Part shown: positions 27,057 to 39,898 of the stretch, in pieces
How the letters are laid out: every line of letters starts with the position of its first letter
Numbering within the stretch: position 1 is the first letter of the stretch
Assembly: GCA_016839785.1 (NCBI GenBank)
Contig: JAEOTQ010000057.1
Span: forward strand, 1-45,772
Direction: 5' to 3'
DNA: 45,772 bases
Origin: Candidatus Hodarchaeota archaeon
GTDB taxonomy: Archaea > Asgardarchaeota > Heimdallarchaeia > Hodarchaeales > Hodarchaeaceae
Translations under genes and position numbers: made by a program
The notes under the pieces: generated by a model
The model's database searches: none
What the model saw: the letters and a program-made list of their open reading frames with translations, nothing else
Told to the model about the DNA's origin: nothing

Positions 27057-27938
27057 ATGCAAGAGTTGAATATTAAATTTCATCCAAACCTTTCAGAATA
27101 CTATGAGTATGTTTTCCCGTTTCTGCTTAAACATGAAGCAGAGAATAACCTACTAATTGGCATCCTAAATACTTTGAAAAATGACATTCACTCATATAGT
27201 AAGGAAGATTCTCCAGTATTCATCTCATTAGAGAGTAATAACGAATTGGAATTGGTTTCTATTCGGACTCCCCCCTTCAATCAACTTATTTCATTTACAA
27301 ATAATTTGCGTACAATTGATATCCTTGTAAAGGAACTTAATAAAAAAAATATGGAGATTCCAGGTGTCTTAGGCTTTAAGGAAGGAGCACTGAGATTTGC
27401 ACAATTATGGGGGGAACTGAATAACCTCAGATTTATTCTAGAAACTCATGAACGGATTTATAGGCTTGAGAATGTAAATGCAAATACTTTAGGGGATAAT
27501 AAATTTGAAATAGCGGCAATAGATGATAAAGAGATCATTCTAAGCATGATGAAAGCATTCTTGTTTGAAGCACTTCCAGAAGGATCAAAAGAGGCAGAGC
27601 ACATCGAATCCTCTCAACGAAGAATGGCACAAGCAATTAAAGACCAGATGGTTCACGTTCTAAAAGTTGAGGGGAAGATTGTTTCAATGGCAAAACGAGC
27701 TCACGTAACTCCTAACGGACAAATAGTTAATGCAGTTTACACTCCTCCAAAAGAACGTAGAAAAGGCTATGCTACAGAATGTGTAGCAAGATTAAGTAAG
27801 AAAATTCTCTCTGAGGGAAAGAAATATTGTTTTCTCTTCACAGATCTAGCAAATCCAACCTCAAACAAAATTTATCAGACAATTGGCTATCGTCCAGTTA
27901 CTGATATGGATTTATATCGCTTTCAACCTGGTGAATGA
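27057..27938 (+). CDS. GNAT family N-acetyltransferase
   Basis: VYTPPKERRKGYA (acetyl-CoA motif A) and LFTDLANPTSNKIYQTIGY. ATG 27057 follows AAGGAG. Confidence 0.9.
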   Translation: MQELNIKFHPNLSEYYEYVFPFLLKHEAENNLLIGILNTLKNDIHSYSKEDSPVFISLESNNELELVSIRTPPFNQLISFTNNLRTIDILVKELNKKNMEIPGVLGFKEGALRFAQLWGELNNLRFILETHERIYRLENVNANTLGDNKFEIAAIDDKEIILSMMKAFLFEALPEGSKEAEHIESSQRRMAQAIKDQMVHVLKVEGKIVSMAKRAHVTPNGQIVNAVYTPPKERRKGYATECVARLSKKILSEGKKYCFLFTDLANPTSNKIYQTIGYRPVTDMDLYRFQPGE

Positions 27939-27939
27939 T

Positions 27940-28173
27940 ATGCAAAAGAAAAAAAAGTGCCAGAACTGTGGAGGAGCTTATATAGTCAATATTCCCAATA
28001 GTTTTTTCGAAAGAGAAGAACATTTATCAATGAAGTGCCCCTATTGTGATTTTTTATTGTCCATGATGGTTGAGGATGGGCGTTTAATTACGGAATCGGA
28101 TGCGAGCTCATATCTGAGGCAATTACCTAAAAAACAGGTGAAGACACAGCCTTGGGTTCAATTGATTAAATAA
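27940..28173 (+). CDS. Small zinc-ribbon protein
   Basis: CQNC...CPYC; the ATG at 27940 is just after the GNAT stop. Confidence 0.65.
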   Translation: MQKKKKCQNCGGAYIVNIPNSFFEREEHLSMKCPYCDFLLSMMVEDGRLITESDASSYLRQLPKKQVKTQPWVQLIK

Positions 28174-28358: not shown

Positions 28359-28565
28359 ATGAAAACACTTGAAGAGCTGGAAAGGGAAAATATTGCCCAG
28401 CAAGCTAACTGCTGGTGGTGTGGATCAATCTTTAAGAGAGGATCAATATGGAGTGATTCAAATAAACATGGAGTTTCACTCTTGGGAAAAAGTGAAAAAC
28501 AACTTGTTTTCCTCCACTGCAATGATTGTGGTAATGATACTTCCCTGACTAGGTGGATTTCATGA
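28359..28565 (+). CDS. Small zinc-finger protein
   Basis: CWWC...HCNDC; upstream AAGGAG. Confidence 0.65.
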   Translation: MKTLEELERENIAQQANCWWCGSIFKRGSIWSDSNKHGVSLLGKSEKQLVFLHCNDCGNDTSLTRWIS

Positions 28566-28998: not shown

Positions 28999-29520
28999 TT
29001 GGAAAAGAAAACACAGGTTTACACACTCATATGGGATAATGGTTTTGTACTGAAGAATGACGAGAAACAATCTCAGAACAAGATATTCCTTTTTATGGAT
29101 GAAGAATCAAAATATATGCGATTAACATATCCTTCTTCTATCGATTTGATTACACGGAGAACTCTGGAACGGCAGCTCCGTCAGATTCAGAAAAGAGGTT
29201 TTTTTCTCGAAAAAGAAAATCTGCGAATCGGCCAAGGTTATGAATATCAAATGGAAGAGGATAGAGATGTTTCACCATCAAGTCTAAAGGAGCATTCTCT
29301 TGAAAAAAGCCCTGATTCAACTGAAGCTGAAGATTTCCCCAAAATTGTACCGTTGATACGCGAAATTAAACAGATATGGATCCATAAGCGAACAGGTGAA
29401 GGATCAGACATGGCAGATTCTCTTGAAAATGGCCAACCGAGTTATTTTGTGTCATTTTTAGCATCTAACTATCAGAAGTTAAATATTCTTATCAATAGTC
29501 TTCCAGATAATCTCTCTTAA
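28999..29520 (+). CDS. Hypothetical protein; N-terminal ~90 aa possibly a divergent gelsolin-like domain
   Basis: 'KIFLFMDEESK..RLTY...DLITRRTLERQLRQIQKRGF' resembles the strand-strand-long-helix pattern of Asgard single-domain gelsolin-like proteins (recalled pattern, unverified). Confidence 0.5.
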   Translation: MEKKTQVYTLIWDNGFVLKNDEKQSQNKIFLFMDEESKYMRLTYPSSIDLITRRTLERQLRQIQKRGFFLEKENLRIGQGYEYQMEEDRDVSPSSLKEHSLEKSPDSTEAEDFPKIVPLIREIKQIWIHKRTGEGSDMADSLENGQPSYFVSFLASNYQKLNILINSLPDNLS

Positions 29521-29545: not shown

Positions 29546-30214
29546 ATGGTAAGAAAAAACCACTATAATAGTGTAGAGACTATTATAACAACCTTAGAGG
29601 AAGCTGATACACAGATCTCATATGAAGAACTGAGTAAACAGACCAAGATTAGAGCAAACAGTTTGAAAATGTGGTTGAGGATTATTGAACTAGTCCAAAA
29701 TAGTACTATTTTCCTAAATTTGACTGAAAATGGGGTAGTAAGCAAATCGTTATCAGATGGTCCCGTTAATGCCCGTATTAGAGTCCAAAAGCGTGAAAAA
29801 GACCCGAAAATTCAAGCATTTCTAACAGAGTTTAAAGGAGTACTATCGAGGACCAAAATATCTTTGGAGGACGATAATATTAAGAATTACCCACAATTAA
29901 AAACTCGAACAGACCTTTCTTCACCTAGATCACCAGTATACACAGATTTACAGTCAGAACTTACTCAAGTACTTGAACAGGGGCTTTCTTTTTTATCTTC
30001 ACCTGAACAAATTAACAAAGGAGAGAATTCTAAGTCCGAAACGCGTTTCATGAATGAATTAAAACAGGCTGTCAATCTTGGAATCAAGAATCTTGAAAAA
30101 GTCGTTGTTACGGATTACAAAGAGAAAAAAGGAAGAGTCACTGCAATGAAATCTGAATTGGAGATGGCTTTTAAAGCTCGTGAAAATCGGCTTATAGAAA
30201 ATAGAAAGAATTGA
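29546..30214 (+). CDS. N-terminal HTH protein with four 16-aa amphipathic WH2-like repeats
   Basis: HTH 'ISYEELSKQTKIRANSLKMWLRII'. Repeats: FLTEFKGVLSRTKISL, LQSELTQVLEQGLSFL, FMNELKQAVNLGIKNL(EKV), MKSELEMAFKARENRL. Confidence 0.7.
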   Translation: MVRKNHYNSVETIITTLEEADTQISYEELSKQTKIRANSLKMWLRIIELVQNSTIFLNLTENGVVSKSLSDGPVNARIRVQKREKDPKIQAFLTEFKGVLSRTKISLEDDNIKNYPQLKTRTDLSSPRSPVYTDLQSELTQVLEQGLSFLSSPEQINKGENSKSETRFMNELKQAVNLGIKNLEKVVVTDYKEKKGRVTAMKSELEMAFKARENRLIENRKN

Positions 30215-30519: not shown

Positions 30520-31923
30520 ATGAATCATGAGTCATCAAAAACAATCAAACGAGTGTCCATAATTAATGCTGATACTGGGATAGAAATATACCAAAAAGAT
30601 TATGAACCTTCATTCTTCCTAGATAAAGATAATCAATTAATTTCTGGATTCATTTCGGCTTTGGTCCAATTTTCTCAAGAAATTGTTAAAGATAACATCC
30701 AAGAGATGGTTTTTTCGAACTCACAGCTATATTTAATGCGGTTTCCCACCGTTTTAATTGTAATTTTGACTCCGATTGGTATTCCTCATGAAAAAGTCAT
30801 GCCCATATTTGAAGTCTTAGGAAACGAAATTGAGAATAAATTTTCCTCTACTCAACTAGACTTCGTCACTCCAGAATTGTCTATAGAAATTGAAACAGTT
30901 ATTGATAAATGTTTGGAAAAGGATGTTCAGTTTCCTACATTTCCAATCACTAGGCAAGATACTGCCCCTAAGATTGTTATAGCTGGATTAAGAAAAGCAG
31001 GTAAAACTACAGCAATTAGAAGTTTCTTTGACTCGTGGGATAAAGAACAGCTACAAACAATACGTCCAACTGTTGATCACTCAATCTTTCACTCCTTCTT
31101 GGAAGTTATGAAGACTGAACTGACAATTTTCGACCTTGGGGGGCAAACCCAGTATGTAGACATGCATGTTAAGGATCGATCAAAGTGGAGAGGTGCAACC
31201 GCCGTTCTGTTCTTAGTAGACATGCACCAACCTGAAGAATTCTCTGCGGCTCATATTTACCTTGAAAATATAATGAAAATATATGAATCAATGAATGAAA
31301 TTCCATTTATTGCTTTAATGGGCCATAAATACGATCCTGCTGATGTCAGTGAGCTTCAACCTAATCTCATGGAATTGCTAAAGACATTTAAAGATCTCTT
31401 TAAATGGCCCCGTTATTCTGTCTTCCTGTCTTCTATCTTTGATGATTCGCTCTATTTAGCATTGATGCGTACATTGGTACGAATTGTTCCTCGTGCTCTT
31501 CTCCAAAATATCATTGGTAGTGCTATTTTCTTTGAGACGCAAAATCAAGTTTGGAGTACTATTTCAGAGGAAGTAGTTCCAGAGGCTAATTCTCGTGCAT
31601 TCTGGTCCAAAATAATAAATCTATCAATTCCATATGGAGAAAAGCTTGCTAATACTATTTTTAGAGAGTGGTTATCTGGAGAGTTTGATCAGGAAATAAA
31701 ACCAAATCTAAAGCTAATTGATGTTGCACTTAAAGATATTGCTGGGGGGATGCAAATCAATATTGTAATGCCAAAAGAGGGGAATTCTCATATCATGATT
31801 CCTGTTATTGAGGGTTTGCTCACTGGGTTAGGAAACGTTTTTGGTTTCTCACGGATTATGAGGCTTCATATAGATCAACAAACTGGGTACATCTCTACAA
31901 GCTGGGGTTTATACGAATTTTAA
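30520..31923 (+). CDS. Longin-like domain + Rag/Gtr-like small GTPase + C-terminal domain (possibly V4R/TRAPP-like)
   Basis: Longin 'NQLISGFISALVQFSQEI'; G1 GLRKAGKT, RPT, G3 DLGGQ, G4 HKYD and G5 SSIFDDSLY. The C-terminus has 'YGEKLA...IEGLLTGL'. Confidence 0.85.
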   Translation: MNHESSKTIKRVSIINADTGIEIYQKDYEPSFFLDKDNQLISGFISALVQFSQEIVKDNIQEMVFSNSQLYLMRFPTVLIVILTPIGIPHEKVMPIFEVLGNEIENKFSSTQLDFVTPELSIEIETVIDKCLEKDVQFPTFPITRQDTAPKIVIAGLRKAGKTTAIRSFFDSWDKEQLQTIRPTVDHSIFHSFLEVMKTELTIFDLGGQTQYVDMHVKDRSKWRGATAVLFLVDMHQPEEFSAAHIYLENIMKIYESMNEIPFIALMGHKYDPADVSELQPNLMELLKTFKDLFKWPRYSVFLSSIFDDSLYLALMRTLVRIVPRALLQNIIGSAIFFETQNQVWSTISEEVVPEANSRAFWSKIINLSIPYGEKLANTIFREWLSGEFDQEIKPNLKLIDVALKDIAGGMQINIVMPKEGNSHIMIPVIEGLLTGLGNVFGFSRIMRLHIDQQTGYISTSWGLYEF

Positions 31924-31925
31924 CC

Positions 31926-32318
31926 TTAGGAATTCTTTTTTTCACTCAATTTCAGGGTGACCAAATCTAGCAATTTCTCTTCCTGAAAAGGTTTAGTAAT
32001 ATAATCATTTGCCCCAAGAAATCGTGCAAAACGTATGTCGTCAGGAGTAGCTAAAGCAGATAAAAATATTAAAGGTATTTGATTGAATTTTGGATTATTC
32101 TTCAAGAATTGATATAACTCATAACCGTCCATTTCTGGCATCATGATGTCACTGACAATTAAATCAGGGAGCCTCCCTTGTGATATATCAAGCAATTTTT
32201 TTGTTGCCTCTTTTCCATTTGTAGCCATTTCCACTTCATAATTATTTGCTTCTAAAGTAACCATTATATTAAATAAAACGTCAGGATTGTCTTCAACAAC
32301 TAAAATTAATGGAGATAT
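31926..32318 (-). CDS. Stand-alone response regulator receiver (CheY-like); probable ATA start
   Basis: DLIVSDIMMPEMDG, FLSA and YITKPF motifs. The essential beta1 'LILVVEDN' lies upstream of the annotated ATG 32264, and AGGAGG precedes ATA 32318. Confidence 0.88.
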   Translation of the reverse strand: MSPLILVVEDNPDVLFNIMVTLEANNYEVEMATNGKEATKKLLDISQGRLPDLIVSDIMMPEMDGYELYQFLKNNPKFNQIPLIFLSALATPDDIRFARFLGANDYITKPFQEEKLLDLVTLKLSEKKNS

Positions 32319-32356
32319 CTTAAACGCCTCCTTTTTAACTACATTACTTGTACCTA

Positions 32357-34099
32357 TTAATCTTTCTTTTCGATTTCAATTTCATCATCTAGCTGATCTT
32401 CTTTCAGCCTCGGGATAAAGAGAATTACAGTGGTTCCATATTTTAATTTGCTTTCTAAGAAAATGTCTCCTTTGTGCATTTTTATCAGATCTCTTGCAAT
32501 TCCTAGTCCTAAACCTGTTCCAGGAATATGGTTTACCTTTTGCGATCGGAAAAATCGTTCAAACATCCTAGGTAGGTCATCATCTGAAATTCCCATGCCT
32601 TTATCTGATATCTTAACTAATACCCCTTCTGAATTCTCTTTATTATATTTTCCTTTATATTTTTCTATTCCCGTAACCAATATTGATCCTTTCTCAAATG
32701 AATATTTAATACTGTTATCTAAAATTATTCTAAATATCTGAGACATCCTATTCGGATCACCAACGAGAGGAAGTTCAATATTATTCGATATATGGACTTC
32801 TATTGATTTTGACTGAGCTCTTGGTTCTAATTGGGTCAGAACCTCCAAAATCACTTCATCTAACAGATATGATTTCCAATGAAATTTAACCCTTCTCTCA
32901 TCAATACGTGATACTAAAAGTAAATCTTCAATTAGCTCGTGTAAGAGCGTTGCATTCCGGGAAATTGCTTCCATCAATTTAGATTTAGTTGAATCAGGTA
33001 ATTTATTTCCATATTTTTCGTAATTACTTATACTTTGGTTTATAACAGTAATGGGTGTTCGCAATTCATGACTAACAGTCGAAACAAATTGTTTTCTCAT
33101 ATTATCAAATTCCACAAAAGGTGTAATGTCCTGAAATTCTATAATGGTTCCTATAGACGAAGTATCGTAATAATTTCCCATTGCAGAACCGAATTGTAGA
33201 AATAATCCTGTCATAGGTTCAATTGAAATTTCTTGTGGGAAATATGAAAAAAACAACTTTTGTATTGTGCTAAAGAATGGATTTCCCTCACTAAGAATTA
33301 AATTAACTCCCTCGATAATTTCTTTTTTGAAAATTCGTCTAAAATACTCCTTAGCGGTTTGGTTTACAATGACAACTTTTCCATCATCATCTAAAACAAT
33401 TATTCCATCTGTGATTGTGTTTAATATTAATTCTATACGTCGTTTCTGATCAAGAAGATCTTGGGTTTTTCTTTGTACTTGAGATTGCAAGAAATCTCTC
33501 GATTTGGACAATGTTTCTTCAGTTTTTTTTCGAAATATCGCAGTACCTAGTATATCTGCAAAGATTCGGATACTTCTCAAATCTTCTTCTTGCCAAGTGT
33601 GAGCCATTGTGATATTTAGGATGAATATGCACCCAGCCAAATATTCAGGAGTGAATATTGGGAAACCGATTAAACTTTGAACACCTTTTTCTTCCAGATA
33701 GTTACGTTCCTGTTCTCCAGTGCTTAGAATTCCTGAATTTCCTGCCAGGATAATTTCATGTCCTTCCCGTATTTCGTTTTGAAACCATTTAAAGTTGTAA
33801 ATTGGAAATGTGCTAAAATAATCATCTCTATTTGAAATTCGATCAGAATTCCAACCAAGAACCATGATTTCATCATTCGTTGGTTCATCAAATAAGCAAA
33901 CTAACACCCCATCCACCATATACATATGAAATAGATCCGCAATCTCTGATAAGTAATATTTCAGTGCCATTTTGAAGTTACTTGAAAATACAAGATAAGT
34001 CGAAATATCACCTATAGTCTTTTCTACCTTCAACCTGAATTCGATTTTCTCTTCCAACGTTTTTATTAACGAATTTTCATAGCTCATAAGCAGTTTCAA
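32357..34099 (-). CDS. Cytosolic sensor histidine kinase (GAF + PAS + HisKA + HATPase)
   Basis: GAF 'GVQSLIGFPIF...WQEEDL', PAS 'ITDGIIVLDDDG', H-box SHELRTP, N-box DNSIKYS, DKGMG and GTGLGL; no TM. Confidence 0.93.
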   Translation of the reverse strand: MKLLMSYENSLIKTLEEKIEFRLKVEKTIGDISTYLVFSSNFKMALKYYLSEIADLFHMYMVDGVLVCLFDEPTNDEIMVLGWNSDRISNRDDYFSTFPIYNFKWFQNEIREGHEIILAGNSGILSTGEQERNYLEEKGVQSLIGFPIFTPEYLAGCIFILNITMAHTWQEEDLRSIRIFADILGTAIFRKKTEETLSKSRDFLQSQVQRKTQDLLDQKRRIELILNTITDGIIVLDDDGKVVIVNQTAKEYFRRIFKKEIIEGVNLILSEGNPFFSTIQKLFFSYFPQEISIEPMTGLFLQFGSAMGNYYDTSSIGTIIEFQDITPFVEFDNMRKQFVSTVSHELRTPITVINQSISNYEKYGNKLPDSTKSKLMEAISRNATLLHELIEDLLLVSRIDERRVKFHWKSYLLDEVILEVLTQLEPRAQSKSIEVHISNNIELPLVGDPNRMSQIFRIILDNSIKYSFEKGSILVTGIEKYKGKYNKENSEGVLVKISDKGMGISDDDLPRMFERFFRSQKVNHIPGTGLGLGIARDLIKMHKGDIFLESKLKYGTTVILFIPRLKEDQLDDEIEIEKKD

Positions 34100-34241: not shown

Positions 34242-35123
34242 ATGAACGGGATTTCAGGAATTCAAAACGTCAGGATTTTAGATTTAGTATCAGGGTCAAC
34301 TTTGATAAACCGATCATATTTAAAGAACCTACATGATGAAATTCAACCAGAATTATTGATATCTACAGTATTATCTTTCACTCAAGAGTCTAAAGACCAA
34401 GAAATTACGAATACAATCATGGTCAAAGACCAGAAGGTCGTTTTGGAGACCACTGAGAACTTGGCTTTTATTGCAGTCGTAGCTGCGGATTATGAAACAT
34501 CAGATGCTAAAAGGATTTTATCTCACGTTCGAGCAAGCTTTTTCCGCCAGCATCCTGTACGGGATTGTCAATGGCAATATGGTGAAAGCATAAAATATTT
34601 TCATAAATTCGAAAAGAAATTAGATGAAATTGTACGGCATTTTAGTAATAGAAAAACTGTCCTGAAATTCGTTTTAATCGGTCGTGAGTATGCTGGGAAA
34701 ACAACTTTAACTCATGCATACGCGGGTACCAATTATGAGGGGTACTTACCCACTTTAGGATTAGACATATTGAGAATAGAGTACAAGAATAAACATATTC
34801 GCCTGTGGGATTTAGGAGGTCAACGTCAATTTAGAAGACTCTGGCCTAAATTTGCTACAGAAGCTTCAGGCATAATTTTTGTAATAGATTCGACAACAAC
34901 ACATTGGGTGGAAACTTTAGAGGTTTTTGAGATTTCAAAATTATTCCATTTACCTACTGTTATATTTGCGAATAAACAAGACTTGGTAGATCATGCAAAT
35001 TCTGTTGAATTGATTGCAGAAAAGCTTGGTGTTCCTATATCATCGATCATTGGAGGAAGTGCTTTATTAAATAAAGGTATTTATGAAGTCTTAGATCAAC
35101 TTCTCGATGAGAGTGTTTTCTAA
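34242..35123 (+). CDS. Longin-like domain + Arf-like small GTPase
   Basis: N-terminal longin-like domain; GREYAGKT, PTLG, WDLGGQRQFRRLW, IIFVIDS, ANKQD and GSA motifs. Confidence 0.88.
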   Translation: MNGISGIQNVRILDLVSGSTLINRSYLKNLHDEIQPELLISTVLSFTQESKDQEITNTIMVKDQKVVLETTENLAFIAVVAADYETSDAKRILSHVRASFFRQHPVRDCQWQYGESIKYFHKFEKKLDEIVRHFSNRKTVLKFVLIGREYAGKTTLTHAYAGTNYEGYLPTLGLDILRIEYKNKHIRLWDLGGQRQFRRLWPKFATEASGIIFVIDSTTTHWVETLEVFEISKLFHLPTVIFANKQDLVDHANSVELIAEKLGVPISSIIGGSALLNKGIYEVLDQLLDESVF

Positions 35124-35156: not shown

Positions 35157-35879
35157 TTATTTCTTTTCCTGCCTAGCCCGAAGTCGCTGGTAAGCAATAA
35201 TTTGAATTGCTAGTTGCTTAAATGCCTTAGTAACTCCTTCACCTGTTTTTGCACTTGTAATCACTGATTTCGTACTGAATTTGTGTTTTGTGAGAGTTTC
35301 GTAATTGATGATTCTGGCAACTCGCTCTACTCGCTCCTTAGGTACGATATGATGGATTTGGTTTCTAAACAAATCGTATTTATTTCCAACAATCATAAAG
35401 GGTACTGGACCCAAATCATTACTTTTCCATAGTTCATTGATCCAATGGCGGAGGTTATCAAATGATGTCGGGTTTGTTACATCACATACAATTAAAGCAC
35501 CATGAGATCCTTTATAGAATGCATTTCTTACTTGATGGAACTTTAATTGCCCTGCTAGATCCCAAATAATAAATTTCACTTTGGAATATCCGATTTCTGT
35601 TTCGTGGATTGCAAAATCGGCTCCAATCGTTTGTTGATATTTTGACTCGAATCCCTCTCCAAGATAAGAGCGTCTTAAAGATGTTTTTCCAACCGCTCCA
35701 TCTCCTGCTAGAATTATTTTTAGATTATATTCTCCTTCTTGTGTTTCATCAATAGTGAAATTCTTCTCTAGTTTTTTCACAGAATTTTCTTCATGTTTCG
35801 ATAAACGTGTATCTTTAATCCTTTCCCAAAGATCATAAAAAGATGAGTCAGAGCTTTCTGTATATTTTGAATCCTTCAT
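35157..35879 (-). CDS. Rab-like small GTPase
   Basis: GDGAVGKT, TIGADF, IWDLAGQ, FYKGSHGAL, GNKYD and TSAKTG; no C-terminal prenylation Cys. Confidence 0.93.
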   Translation of the reverse strand: MKDSKYTESSDSSFYDLWERIKDTRLSKHEENSVKKLEKNFTIDETQEGEYNLKIILAGDGAVGKTSLRRSYLGEGFESKYQQTIGADFAIHETEIGYSKVKFIIWDLAGQLKFHQVRNAFYKGSHGALIVCDVTNPTSFDNLRHWINELWKSNDLGPVPFMIVGNKYDLFRNQIHHIVPKERVERVARIINYETLTKHKFSTKSVITSAKTGEGVTKAFKQLAIQIIAYQRLRARQEKK

Positions 35880-35920: not shown

Positions 35921-38900
35921 CTATTTATCTAAGACTTCTTTAACATTGAGAATCCTCGGGAGAAATATCGAAAAAACTGTACCATATCCATAGTCGCTTT
36001 CAACTTGGATTTCCCCATGGTGACTTTCTATTATGGTTTTAGCAATATCTAAACCCACTCCACTCCCTGGTACATCAATTATATCATCTGAACGGAAATA
36101 TCTATCAAAAATAAATGGGATATCTTTCTCTGGAATACCTTTTCCTGAATCAATGACTTGAATTAAGATACCATCCTCATTTTTTGGATTATACTCTCCA
36201 TAATAGTGGTCTAAAGCCTCAATCCGTACTTTAGAGTGCCTTTTACTATACTTAAATGCATTATCAAGTAAAATTCGAAAAACTTGACTTAATCTTTTTC
36301 CATCTCCCAAGAATTCGATATTTGACGCAATATTACAACTTAAACTTATCTCTCGCTCAGATCGTTTCGAATCCATCTGGATTAAAACCTCTTTCACGGT
36401 TTTTCTTAATTTTACATTCTGCCAATTAAGATTAAACTTTCCAGCTTCAATCCGTGAGACAATCAGTAGATCCTCTACCATTTGAGTAAGCACATCAGAA
36501 CTGAAACTCATAGTTTCGATAAGAGATTTTTTCTCAAGTTCAGAGAACTTATCCCAATACCGCTGCAAATTTTGGAGAGAGAGACTTATCCCTGTAATAG
36601 GAGTTCGTAATTCATGTGAAACAGTGGAAACAAATTGTTTTCTCAAATTATTCAATTCGACAAATGGAGTTACGTCCCGAACCACAATTACTACGCCTAT
36701 ATGTGTATTAGGTTGACTTATAACTTTAGAAGATGCTAATTCTAAATGAAATCCTTTTACCGGTTCTATAGTTGTATTTATATCTTTTTTTGAATAAAAA
36801 ATCTTAGAAATTGTGTCTCCAAATTTATTCTTCAGAATCAAAACCTCATTCAGAAATTTTGGTAATTTACTCTGATAAATTTTCTGATAAAATTCATGAA
36901 ACTTCTTATTTATCAGAATAAATTTCATCTTCGAGTCAATAACCACAATTCCAGTAGGTATAGTTTCGACTATGGCTTCAATCCTCAATTTTTCTTTTTT
37001 CAAATCGTGTGTTCTTTTGTCAATTTGGTCCGAAAGATAATCTCGTGCTTGTAGCAAGAAATCCTCAGCCTTCTTTTTCGCAGTAATATCTGATACAATT
37101 GCAAAAGATCCCAGGATTTCATTTTTATTATCAAAAATTAATCTTCCAGAGACTCTCGCTATTAACGGTATTCCATCTTTACAAATAAATGTTAGTTCAT
37201 AAGAAGATGAATCTATTTGCTCACTGAACCTCTCTTTCGAAACAGCGGTAAAAGTTGTCAATGAGTTCGTATCCAAGAAATCTTTGACGTGATGCCCAAG
37301 CATTTCATTTTTAGTATAACCTAGCATTTTCTCAAGTGCGGGATTCACGAAGGTTGTTATATCTTCTTTATCTGTTACCCAAATCCCCTCTGGAGAGGTT
37401 GAAACTAACCTTCTGTAGTTTTCTTCGCTTTTCTTCAACGCTTCTTCCGCTTGCTTTCGTTCAGTGATATCCTCACCTGAACTAAGGGTTCCTATGATCA
37501 CCCCTTTTTCATCAGTTAACATGGTATTAAACCAGGAGATCTCTCTAACTTCCCCTTCTTTTGTCATAATTGGATTTTCAAATCGGTCTTTTTGAGATAT
37601 TCTCCCCTCTAGTAAATTTCTGAAAACAGTTCGAACTTTCTCTCTGTATCTGGAAGGAAGGAATGAATCAAACCAGTTTTTACCAAGTATTTCATGTTCT
37701 GAATAACCTAAAGTTTCACATCCCATCCGATTTATTAAAGTCACTTCCTGATTTTTATTCAGTGCCAGCATAATCACTGGAATGATATCAAGATATCTTT
37801 GAGCTGTGTCCCGCTCCTTTCTCAAGATTACCTCGATTGATTTTTGTTCTGAGATATCGTTGAGGATATGGACAACCTCAGTAACATCTCCCCTCTCATC
37901 GTTTATTGGGAATAGTTGACTTTGAACCCATAATTTTTTTGTACCTTCAAATTCATGAATATCTGGATTATTAGGGTTAAAAAAGATAGAAGGAAGAGAG
38001 ATATTTTCACCTGCGAAACCTCGCTTAATAAAAGGCATTAGACCCTTTTTTTCCAATTGCTCATCATCTAAGATATTGTAGTTCCCTAGAATATATTCAT
38101 AGTGTTCCTGAGATATGCCCCAAAGTTTCCTTGCTGCCTGATTTCCAAAAATTACATTACCATTTTTCTCATGCACAACAATACCTGCAGGATATTGTTC
38201 TATTAGACTTCTAAATCGCGATTCTGATTCCTGTAGCTCGTTTTCAATCCTCTTCAACTCAGATACATCGCGAATTATTGATAGAATTGATACTGGTTTA
38301 TCATTCTCATATAAAACAACTGATTTTGCGTATCGATTTACCCATTGGCCTTTTTTATTTTTGACACGATATTCTACACTTGATTTTCCTTTTTCCATAA
38401 GAATTGTGTCACTAATTTTTAGACGAGGAGCGTCATCTGGATGAATACGAGAGTATCTATCTAGATCGATATTGTCTATATCTTCGAATCCTAAGCTTGA
38501 ATAATATGCCTTGTTCCGATAAATATGTTTACCTTCTAAATCAGTTTGAATAATAACATCATCTGCAGCATTGATTAATGTTTCAAATCTCCTTTTCGAC
38601 TTTTTTAATTCGCTGTTAATCCGCTTCTTCTCGGTTATGTCACTTAATATAGCAATTATTCCCCAAGGTGTGGGATATATATCTGAGTTATAATGTCTAT
38701 CTGTAAAAGGTACTTCTAAACTTTTAGCCTTCTTATTATCGAATACATCACTGATTAATGTATATAAAAGAGAATTCTCAAACTCGGAAGAAATTTCAAG
38801 CAAATTTGATCCTTCTATTCCTTCTGCTGTATTTTTGTCTAACAGCTCTGCAAAAGAATCGTTACAAAATAGAATAGAGAAGTCTGAAATAAGTGCCACA

Positions 38901-38968
38901 ATTGGGGATTGAATACACTGTAAAAGAACTCTATGCTTTAGATCGAAATCTTTGTTGCTTTCGGACAT
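35921..38968 (-). CDS. Cytosolic multi-PAS (about six) sensor histidine kinase
   Basis: Repeated PAS/PAC units ending DITE/DVSE/DISE/DITA; SHELRTP, DNAFKYS, DSGKG and GSGVGL; no TM. Confidence 0.94.
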   Translation of the reverse strand: MSESNKDFDLKHRVLLQCIQSPIVALISDFSILFCNDSFAELLDKNTAEGIEGSNLLEISSEFENSLLYTLISDVFDNKKAKSLEVPFTDRHYNSDIYPTPWGIIAILSDITEKKRINSELKKSKRRFETLINAADDVIIQTDLEGKHIYRNKAYYSSLGFEDIDNIDLDRYSRIHPDDAPRLKISDTILMEKGKSSVEYRVKNKKGQWVNRYAKSVVLYENDKPVSILSIIRDVSELKRIENELQESESRFRSLIEQYPAGIVVHEKNGNVIFGNQAARKLWGISQEHYEYILGNYNILDDEQLEKKGLMPFIKRGFAGENISLPSIFFNPNNPDIHEFEGTKKLWVQSQLFPINDERGDVTEVVHILNDISEQKSIEVILRKERDTAQRYLDIIPVIMLALNKNQEVTLINRMGCETLGYSEHEILGKNWFDSFLPSRYREKVRTVFRNLLEGRISQKDRFENPIMTKEGEVREISWFNTMLTDEKGVIIGTLSSGEDITERKQAEEALKKSEENYRRLVSTSPEGIWVTDKEDITTFVNPALEKMLGYTKNEMLGHHVKDFLDTNSLTTFTAVSKERFSEQIDSSSYELTFICKDGIPLIARVSGRLIFDNKNEILGSFAIVSDITAKKKAEDFLLQARDYLSDQIDKRTHDLKKEKLRIEAIVETIPTGIVVIDSKMKFILINKKFHEFYQKIYQSKLPKFLNEVLILKNKFGDTISKIFYSKKDINTTIEPVKGFHLELASSKVISQPNTHIGVVIVVRDVTPFVELNNLRKQFVSTVSHELRTPITGISLSLQNLQRYWDKFSELEKKSLIETMSFSSDVLTQMVEDLLIVSRIEAGKFNLNWQNVKLRKTVKEVLIQMDSKRSEREISLSCNIASNIEFLGDGKRLSQVFRILLDNAFKYSKRHSKVRIEALDHYYGEYNPKNEDGILIQVIDSGKGIPEKDIPFIFDRYFRSDDIIDVPGSGVGLDIAKTIIESHHGEIQVESDYGYGTVFSIFLPRILNVKEVLDK

Positions 38969-39001
38969 CTACTCATCTCTAAAGGATTGCCATAGGAGAA
39001 T

Positions 39002-39898
39002 TCATGATTGAATCAAATCAGTCATGAGAATTTCGACCATTCTTTTCCAATATGGCTCAATTTTCCACTCTATTCCATTCCTGATATTCCTAGCTAATTC
39101 AGTGAACTCTTCCTCAATCCTCAATGACTCAAGATAATTTATTCTAGGAGCTAAAGCAACTAACATGAACTGTCTCTTACCACCTCTTACCTCGTCATCA
39201 TCGATTGCGTCAAAATATATATATCCATCTTTATTTATGCTAGCTATTCTTAATAAGAGCCCTTGTGGATCATAATCTGTGGTTTGTCCATAGACTGAAA
39301 CTGTTGCTTGGAATAGTTGTGTTCCAATGATATCAAAATCAATAGATGAATCAACTTTTTCTGGAAAAATGGTAGTAATTTTCGGTCCAAATGACTCATC
39401 CCAATCTATAATTAGGATAACTAATTCTTCTTTTTCACCTTTCATGAGTGAAGGTTTAAGATTTTTGATTAATAAGTCCAATATTTTTTGGCCAATCTTC
39501 TGAGAATATGTGCTCTGAAATTTATTTCTCCTTAGCTTTCCCTTTATACTTGCGAGTAAATCATCATTGTCAAAGGGCTTGATGATATAATCATCTACGC
39601 CGAGTTTTTTACCAAATCGAACATCTTCGGGATCAGATTTTGCTGTTAAGAAAATAAATGGAATCCGAAACCAATTAGGATTATCAGAAACTTTCTCAAA
39701 GAAATCGTAGCCATCCATTTCAGGCATCATAATATCACTAAGAATTAAATCTGGAGGATTGTCCATTGTTTCAAGTAGTTTTAACGCTTCGACTCCATTT
39801 TGAGCTTTGTACGTCTGATAATCATTCAACCTAAGAATCAAATCAAGATTCAGCATTATTTGCTTATTATCTTCTACAATCAAGATTGTTTTTGTCAA
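39002..39898 (-). CDS. Response regulator: receiver fused to a uDENN/longin-like output domain
   Basis: Receiver ILIVEDN, DLILSDIMMP, FLTA and KPF. The C-terminal domain 'ILIIDWDESFGPKITTIFP...GYIYF...RGGKRQFMLVAL' has no HTH. Confidence 0.85.
   Translation of the reverse strand: MTKTILIVEDNKQIMLNLDLILRLNDYQTYKAQNGVEALKLLETMDNPPDLILSDIMMPEMDGYDFFEKVSDNPNWFRIPFIFLTAKSDPEDVRFGKKLGVDDYIIKPFDNDDLLASIKGKLRRNKFQSTYSQKIGQKILDLLIKNLKPSLMKGEKEELVILIIDWDESFGPKITTIFPEKVDSSIDFDIIGTQLFQATVSVYGQTTDYDPQGLLLRIASINKDGYIYFDAIDDDEVRGGKRQFMLVALAPRINYLESLRIEEEFTELARNIRNGIEWKIEPYWKRMVEILMTDLIQS

Follow-up and report, generated by a model that had tools for sequence, protein, structure and literature searches.

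Hodarchaeales are the archaea placed closest to eukaryotes, and to our knowledge the actin regulators known from Asgard archaea amount to profilins, gelsolins and little else. How actin filaments are nucleated in these organisms, and how they are tied to other cell structures, are open questions. The WH2 motif consists of a short amphipathic helix, often a glycine, and then, a few residues on, an LKKV or LKKT element that carries a basic residue in its second place. Spire, Cobl and VopL/VopF contain such motifs in tandem. In the actin-sensing cofactors of the MRTF/RPEL type, repeated short actin-binding helices are coupled to a gene-regulatory protein. The Asgard gelsolins include Thorarchaeota ProGel, 1DGelX and 2DGel (Akil et al. 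2020, PMC7444086; Akil et al. 2022, PMC9433394). In the portions available of PMC9433394 and of bioRxiv 10.1101/2025.11.30.690169, WH2-like motifs in Asgard archaea are described only as LKKT-like linker motifs in the 2DGel gelsolins. Asgard actin regulators of the gelsolin type that have an accessory partner are a kind already known. The two genes examined here form a conserved pair: the product of one, P0015, has the predicted fold of a gelsolin, and the product of the other, P0001, combines a predicted winged helix with four peptide-sized helix motifs and is specific to its lineage.

Both genes lie in the window, by which we mean the whole stretch of 45,772 nucleotides that was analysed. 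Their coordinates and those of the other features are collected in Table 1.

Table 1. Coordinates of the gene pair, its domains and motifs, the nearby GTPase genes and the gelsolin fusion found elsewhere in the same genome (positions refer to the window unless a contig is given)
Feature	Position	Strand	Description
P0015 partner gene	28999..29520	+	173 aa ORF, 25 nt upstream of P0001
Predicted gelsolin/ADF-like fold domain of P0015	29017..29262	+	aa 7-88; AlphaFold2, Foldseek, VIA
P0001 gene	29546..30214	+	ATG start, 222 aa ORF; real, conserved Hodarchaeales (Asgard) gene
Predicted winged-helix domain of P0001	29558..29749	+	aa 5-68; three helices and a beta hairpin; AlphaFold2 pLDDT 67-84
Basic helix after the wing	29765..29797	+	aa 74-84; consensus IRTRIKKRE, then invariant D86-P87
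Motif repeat 1	29819..29866	+	aa 92-107, FLTEFKGVLSRTKISL; invariant F92 F96 V99 L100 T103
Motif repeat 2	29948..29995	+	aa 135-150, LQSELTQVLEQGLSFL; invariant D134 E138 L139 L143 G146 S148 L150
Motif repeat 3 and LEKV end	30047..30103	+	aa 168-186; invariant L172 K173 A175 L178 G179 I180 L183 E184 D190
Motif repeat 4, basic end	30146..30193	+	aa 201-216, MKSELEMAFKARENRL; invariant E204 L205 R212
Three small-GTPase genes within 5.4 kb	30520-31923, 34242-35123, 35157-35879	+, +, -	
Three-part gelsolin	G000:C204:5676-6908 (locus L063:898-2130)	-	411 aa; two PF00626 domains, LKHV linker motif, Pro-rich linker, P0015-type domain aa 330-393

The nine homologues of P0001 (218-234 aa, 55-75% identity) come from metagenomes and MAGs, and those that are named bear the label "hypothetical protein" of Hodarchaeales or Heimdallarchaeota. 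Among 1.84 billion cluster representatives there were four matches at E <=0.001, the remotest with 31% identity. Full-length relatives occur in 2 of 400 Asgard genomes, namely the window's own (G000) and a second one of the same genus (G060). No Pfam family reached the cut-off for P0001 or 13 family members, and the only match in PDB sequence searches with P0001 (phmmer and profile) was a de novo protein at a meaningless E of 0.1. A feature-based Atlas search with the homologue P0006 placed clusters of wHTH proteins nearest, with scores of at most 0.82 that make them leads only. Among 2,530 candidates of 390-2000 aa, no longer or fused form of P0001 was found at E <=0.01, a result that carries little weight. 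The P0001 and P0015 families are described in none of the libraries used, and the architecture of the accessory partner of the gelsolin-fold protein is new.

P0001 has a fixed partner. At all four loci where the upstream DNA is present (the window, G060, L072 and L073), the P0001 homologue is immediately preceded, on its own strand, by a P0015 homologue; L071 was excluded from this count as it ends 33 nt before the gene. Eight homologues of P0015 were found besides P0015 itself; four members of this set come with a longest contig equal in length to that of a P0001 homologue. Full-length P0015 matches in the 400 Asgard genomes are restricted to the same two genomes as those of P0001. Within the genus, 2 of 22 genomes have the pair, the window's own counted, and the module is therefore an accessory one. 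The possibility that the two proteins are paralogues of each other was rejected (BLASTP E 25). In G060 (L010:4663-5655), a tfb (TFIIB-like) gene is situated directly upstream of the pair and a membrane protein downstream, and the flanks are unrelated to those in the window, with no nucleotide similarity to the window. Since the flanking contexts differ, the pair travels as a unit, and its GTPase neighbour is incidental. The earlier note had placed P0001 next to a GTPase signalling locus; this description is true of the window, but the arrangement is not conserved at the homologous loci. The position behind tfb in G060 raised the question of whether the pair is carried as cargo of tfb-associated cassettes. 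For the window this is not supported: tblastn revealed neither a tfb gene nor a remnant of a tfb end there (best E 2.2), and the genome's tfb copies are on other contigs.

The partner is where a possible connection to actin comes into view. AlphaFold2, run with 10 sequences, predicts for P0015 an N-terminal domain in which four strands lead into a long helix and three more strands follow (aa 7-88; block-mean pLDDT 68-90 over aa 1-90). Residues 90-111 form an acidic linker predicted to be disordered, and residues 113-173 a small domain of low confidence, which among the 400 genomes was found only in the P0001-P0015 pair. The top match of the N-domain in both fold searches was 7c2f, Thorarchaeota ProGel bound to actin. 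Foldseek aligned it with 7c2f_B at E 1.3e-2 and prob 1.00, and VIA aligned aa 6-90 of the model with 7c2f_D at a middling Z of 8.1 (rmsd 3.0 over 72 residues). Ranks 2-23 in VIA were nearly all gelsolin, adseverin, villin, fragmin, severin, ADF, cofilin, coactosin and drebrin ADF-H domains. Judging from one AlphaFold2 model with a mean pLDDT of 67, the N-domain is predicted to have a gelsolin-type fold, that is, a mixed sheet packed on a long helix. Such a fold does not prove actin binding; Sec23/24 domains are also among the VIA matches. A roadblock or longin fold was considered as well, since a Rab-like GTPase gene adjoins one member of the family, but found no support: no such chains appeared among the best 50 VIA matches, and three members from other lineages have different neighbours.

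Although ProGel is the best structural match of the P0015 N-domain, sequence searches miss the relationship. The Pfam Gelsolin profile PF00626 had no match in P0015 and three relatives, and in the genome it matched at seven places, none of them on the window's contig (C8), on C96 or at the paralogue on C27. Searching PDB sequences with the partner profile returned nothing significant. When the P0015-type domain was compared with the canonical gelsolin domains of the genome, hhalign aligned 57 columns in register, at E 0.019 and a probability of 2.4%. The conserved helix of the P0015-type domain is basic, with the consensus SLITKKIIERRVQSIAKSGF. In its layout of a gelsolin-like domain, a disordered linker and a C-terminal domain, P0015 resembles 1DGelX, a comparison of layout and not of sequence.

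The N-domain of P0015 belongs to a larger domain family, which is invisible to Pfam. P0015-type N-domains are present in 131 of the 400 Asgard genomes, in proteins of ~100 aa and of ~250 aa, and the family profile matches 4 ORFs among the 11,870 of the window's genome. In the three-part gelsolin on contig C204, a domain of this type follows a true gelsolin, namely a 2DGel whose linker contains an LKHV motif, within one protein. It was recognised at E 1e-10 in the genome-wide search, and the C204 protein had not been used in building the profile. The connection that this fusion makes between the P0015-type domain and the gelsolin machinery does not depend on the fold model. The available parts of PMC7444086 and PMC9433394 do not mention a three-part gelsolin consisting of a 2DGel and a P0015-type domain.

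Other members of the family are found in various settings. A 93-aa stand-alone member on contig C96 of the same genome (L062:1018-1299, - strand) abuts a Rab-like GTPase gene (466-1017, - strand) with no gap, and members in other Asgard lineages (L057, L059 and L060) have neighbours that differ from a Rab-like GTPase. A ~250-aa paralogue of P0015 with the same predicted gelsolin-fold N-domain is directly preceded by the gene of a proline-rich protein at 16 of 16 loci of the genus (L061:130-1005 on G000:C27, L043-L056 and L058). This proline-rich protein combines PxP-type repeats, which vary in number, with a helix conserved as DK[FL]xAL[ND]EALxxSGL and an acidic C-terminus, EEDDMLSLSLREALKILRDEDED, that is nearly invariant. 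Its succession of proline-rich part, helix and acidic tail recalls eukaryotic nucleation-promoting factors, but Pfam had no match in the protein. PMC8410842 contains passages on polyproline and profilin. A relationship between the P0001 motifs and the C-terminal helices of the proline-rich protein was rejected (hhalign E 0.5 over 8 columns). Around the genome's canonical gelsolin genes, the ORFs of at least 45 aa on the gene's strand included none for a WH2-like microprotein.

The N-terminal part of P0001 was expected, from the earlier note, to be an HTH domain, and the structure predictions bear this out in the form of a winged helix. AlphaFold2 with 10 sequences places helices at residues 5-19, 26-33 and 37-49 and strands at 55-59 and 63-68. 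In VIA, aa 2-71 matched the N-domains of NiaR, ScpB and PurR with Z 9.1-9.9 and rmsd 1.9-3.1 over 63-70 residues, and Foldseek matched TFE-alpha, AspA, MarR and ArsR at E 0.05-0.3 with prob 0.94-0.99. The N-domain of P0001 is predicted to be alike in fold to those of ScpB, NiaR, PurR, TFE-alpha and AspA, but falls into no sequence family at the cut-off. DNA binding does not follow from the fold, because some of the matched domains (ScpB, ESCRT-II, cullin and proteasome lid) bind proteins, not DNA. In 11 full-length members, pI values between 5.7 and 10.3 were obtained for the domain, and neither this spread nor the basic helix behind the wing is decisive for DNA binding. Five further genomes among the 400 match only the first 61-70 residues of P0001. 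These weak relatives (E 1.8e-7 to 9.3e-4) have the motif NSxxxxKWLExI in common and comprise ~100-aa ORFs (L005, L006 and L008), a protein of 185 aa (L007) and one of 345 aa (L009). Because the winged helix occurs both alone and with other C-terminal extensions, it is a mobile module of an undescribed Asgard family.

The second half of P0001 carries the helix motifs. The pattern [FLM]xxE[LF]xx[VA][LVF]x6L, proposed in the earlier note for four segments, matched P0001 at exactly the four starting points of Table 1, spaced by 43, 33 and 33 aa, and the ends of two segments also read as claimed (...LGIKNLEKV in repeat 3 and ...MAFKAR in repeat 4). Its description of the segments as separated by polar linkers fits repeats 1-2 and 2-3, where the linkers are polar and variable; repeats 3 and 4 are joined by the short connector VVTDYKxKKGRV, which is conserved. 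Repeats 2 and 3 have a common core, L-x3-hydrophobic-x2-G-hydrophobic-x2-L.

In 20,000 shuffled versions of P0001, the pattern was absent from 19,990, matched once in 10 and matched at least twice in none. A looser 9-residue pattern, which has four matches in P0001, reached three matches in 4 of the 20,000 shuffles and at least four in none. These figures overstate the significance, because the pattern was written after the four segments had been seen; fairer controls come from counting matches across the genome and from conservation. Of the genome's 11,870 stop-to-stop ORFs of at least 60 aa, eight contain at least one match, and P0001, with four, is the only one to contain at least two. In 10 close homologues the strict pattern matched 4, 4, 2, 4, 4, 3, 3, 4, 3 and 3 times, the misses being single conservative substitutions. 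The alignment of homologues, a check that the earlier note had suggested, came out in favour of the motif: its core residues are the same even in homologues with 29% identity, whereas length and sequence differ in the linkers between repeats 1 and 2 and between repeats 2 and 3. Invariant glycines lie within helices 2 and 3, and numerous exposed polar residues are invariant too. Profile-profile comparison of the four segments gave P 0.02-0.66, and an HMM made for each repeat matched only that repeat in the genome, so what we see is a repeated short motif and not a detectable domain duplication. At the level of sequence, the four copies are a genuine repeat, each of them individually conserved.

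The explanation that we tentatively prefer, and would stop just short of calling probable, is that P0001 and P0015 constitute a two-gene adaptor module linked to the actin cytoskeleton, with the helices serving as docking motifs. P0001 is the second half of this conserved gene pair, which belongs to a narrow Hodarchaeales lineage. Through the divergent gelsolin/ADF-fold domain of P0015, the module would make contact with actin or the gelsolin machinery. The P0001 motifs would dock on P0015, which has a C-terminal domain exclusive to the pair, and possibly on actin too, and the winged helix would tie the complex to DNA or to another protein. A link of P0001 to actin is plausible because its fixed partner has a predicted gelsolin/ADF fold and contains a domain type that is fused to a canonical gelsolin. 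The low pLDDT of the C-terminal half of P0001 (37-59), together with conserved motifs set in drifting linkers, fits segments that take up their fold on a partner. If the motifs bind only P0015, the pair would represent a new adaptor for the archaeal actin machinery. The two proteins are cheap recombinant targets, and the motifs can be tested singly.

The model of the C-terminal half of P0001 can also be taken more literally. AlphaFold2 predicts helices at 87-108, 130-151, 163-188 and 191-221 (pTM 0.33) and, at this low confidence, packs the last three, which hold repeats 2-4, as a three-helix bundle. VIA aligned aa 124-222 with three-helix bundles at Z 9.6-10.4 and rmsd 2.2-2.9 over 86-96 residues, where a Z of ~10 is below the level counted meaningful for helical bundles. 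P0001 would then be an ordinary small archaeal winged-helix regulator that dimerises or senses a ligand through a self-contained C-terminal bundle or coiled coil, and P0015 a co-regulated accessory protein, with no role for actin. The conserved connector between repeats 3 and 4 agrees with such a bundle, and both the winged-helix matches, which are mostly transcription regulators, and the wHTH leads of the Atlas search agree with a regulator. Nevertheless, we regard this explanation as rather doubtful: to the weak confidence and Z-scores of the bundle are added the invariant glycines inside two of its helices and the invariant polar residues exposed on its surface, and the strict pairing with a gelsolin-fold gene and the gelsolin fusion are left unexplained.

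The earlier note had gone further than docking and read the segments as WH2-like repeats. In its strong form, this reading would have each of the motifs, above all repeats 2 and 3, occupy the cleft between subdomains 1 and 3 of an actin monomer, and P0001 would sequester or nucleate actin or act, in the manner of MRTF, as a G-actin sensor for a DNA-bound winged helix. The likeness to tandem WH2 proteins is visible in several respects. The helices recur every ~33 residues in polar linkers, which between repeats 1 and 2 and repeats 2 and 3 are variable; in repeats 2 and 3 a glycine is followed by a leucine three residues on, and the core of these two repeats and the LEKV of repeat 3 resemble the WH2 consensus. 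The low AlphaFold2 confidence would also suit segments that fold upon binding, and the adjoining gene has the predicted fold of an actin-binding protein, with a domain type that is fused to a true gelsolin.

The profiles and the details of the repeats speak against it. Pfam WH2 (PF02205, cut-off 23.1 bits) had no match in P0001 or 13 family members at E up to 1, and a six-frame search of the genome at E up to 10 gave one match on contig C69 and none on the window's contig. The RPEL profile (PF02755) was likewise empty for P0001 and its family members and, at E up to 10, matched only another contig of the genome, so that the likeness to MRTF/RPEL cofactors lies in the concept alone, that is, in repeated short helices combined with a gene-regulatory protein. 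Both profiles are short, and divergent copies could be missed by them. An LKKV-like end is present in one of the four repeats, repeat 3, where the helix core and G179 are followed by L183-E184-K-V, with a glutamate where WH2 has a basic residue. Repeat 2 continues from its helix core and G146 to L150-S-S, repeat 1 reads L100-S-[KR]-T-[KR], and repeat 4 has no motif of the LKKT/LKKV type. Moreover, the predicted helices of P0001 are longer than those of WH2 (22-31 residues, not ~3 turns), the connector between repeats 3 and 4 is short and conserved, the repeat HMMs recognise only themselves, the array is fused to a winged helix, and AlphaFold2 draws repeats 2-4 as a bundle. Of the original claim, conserved amphipathic helix motifs and the LEKV of repeat 3 stand; the WH2 profile did not match, and three of the four repeats have no LKKV-like end. 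We therefore consider it unlikely that the motifs bind actin as WH2-like elements, and the reading of the repeats as four WH2 domains is not established by their sequence.

The last alternative, a meaningless chance pattern in a helical protein rich in Leu, Glu and Lys, could appeal to the post hoc pattern and to the profile-profile P values, but is hardly credible given that no shuffle and no other ORF of the genome reached two matches and that the cores remain invariant at 29% identity while the linkers drift.

The broader proposal, a stand-alone tandem WH2-like array of Hodarchaeales that is joined to a winged helix, shares an operon with a gelsolin-fold gene and couples actin to the chromosome physically or through regulation, seems to us improbable on the same material. 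Were it true, the WH2 nucleators, sequesterers or actin-sensing transcription cofactors of eukaryotes would have an archaeal forerunner or analogue in P0001, and actin binding by the motifs would mean that WH2-type regulation predates eukaryotes.

The neighbours of the pair in the window confirm its Asgard setting; they include histidine kinases, response regulators and GTPases that are Gtr1/RagA-like, Arf-like and Ras-like. Between a GNAT gene and the pair lie two small ORFs, 27883-28173 (+) and 28359-28565 (+), which are Cys-rich and zinc-ribbon-like and whose Pfam matches are all below the cut-off. Among the three small GTPases, one is a protein of 467 aa with a Gtr1/RagA-like G domain (aa 151-325) between unassigned terminal regions, another is Arf-like with a possible longin-like N-terminus (E 0.054), and one is of the Ras family. 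Two histidine kinase/response regulator pairs, at 31926-34099 and 35921-39898, interleave with these GTPase genes.
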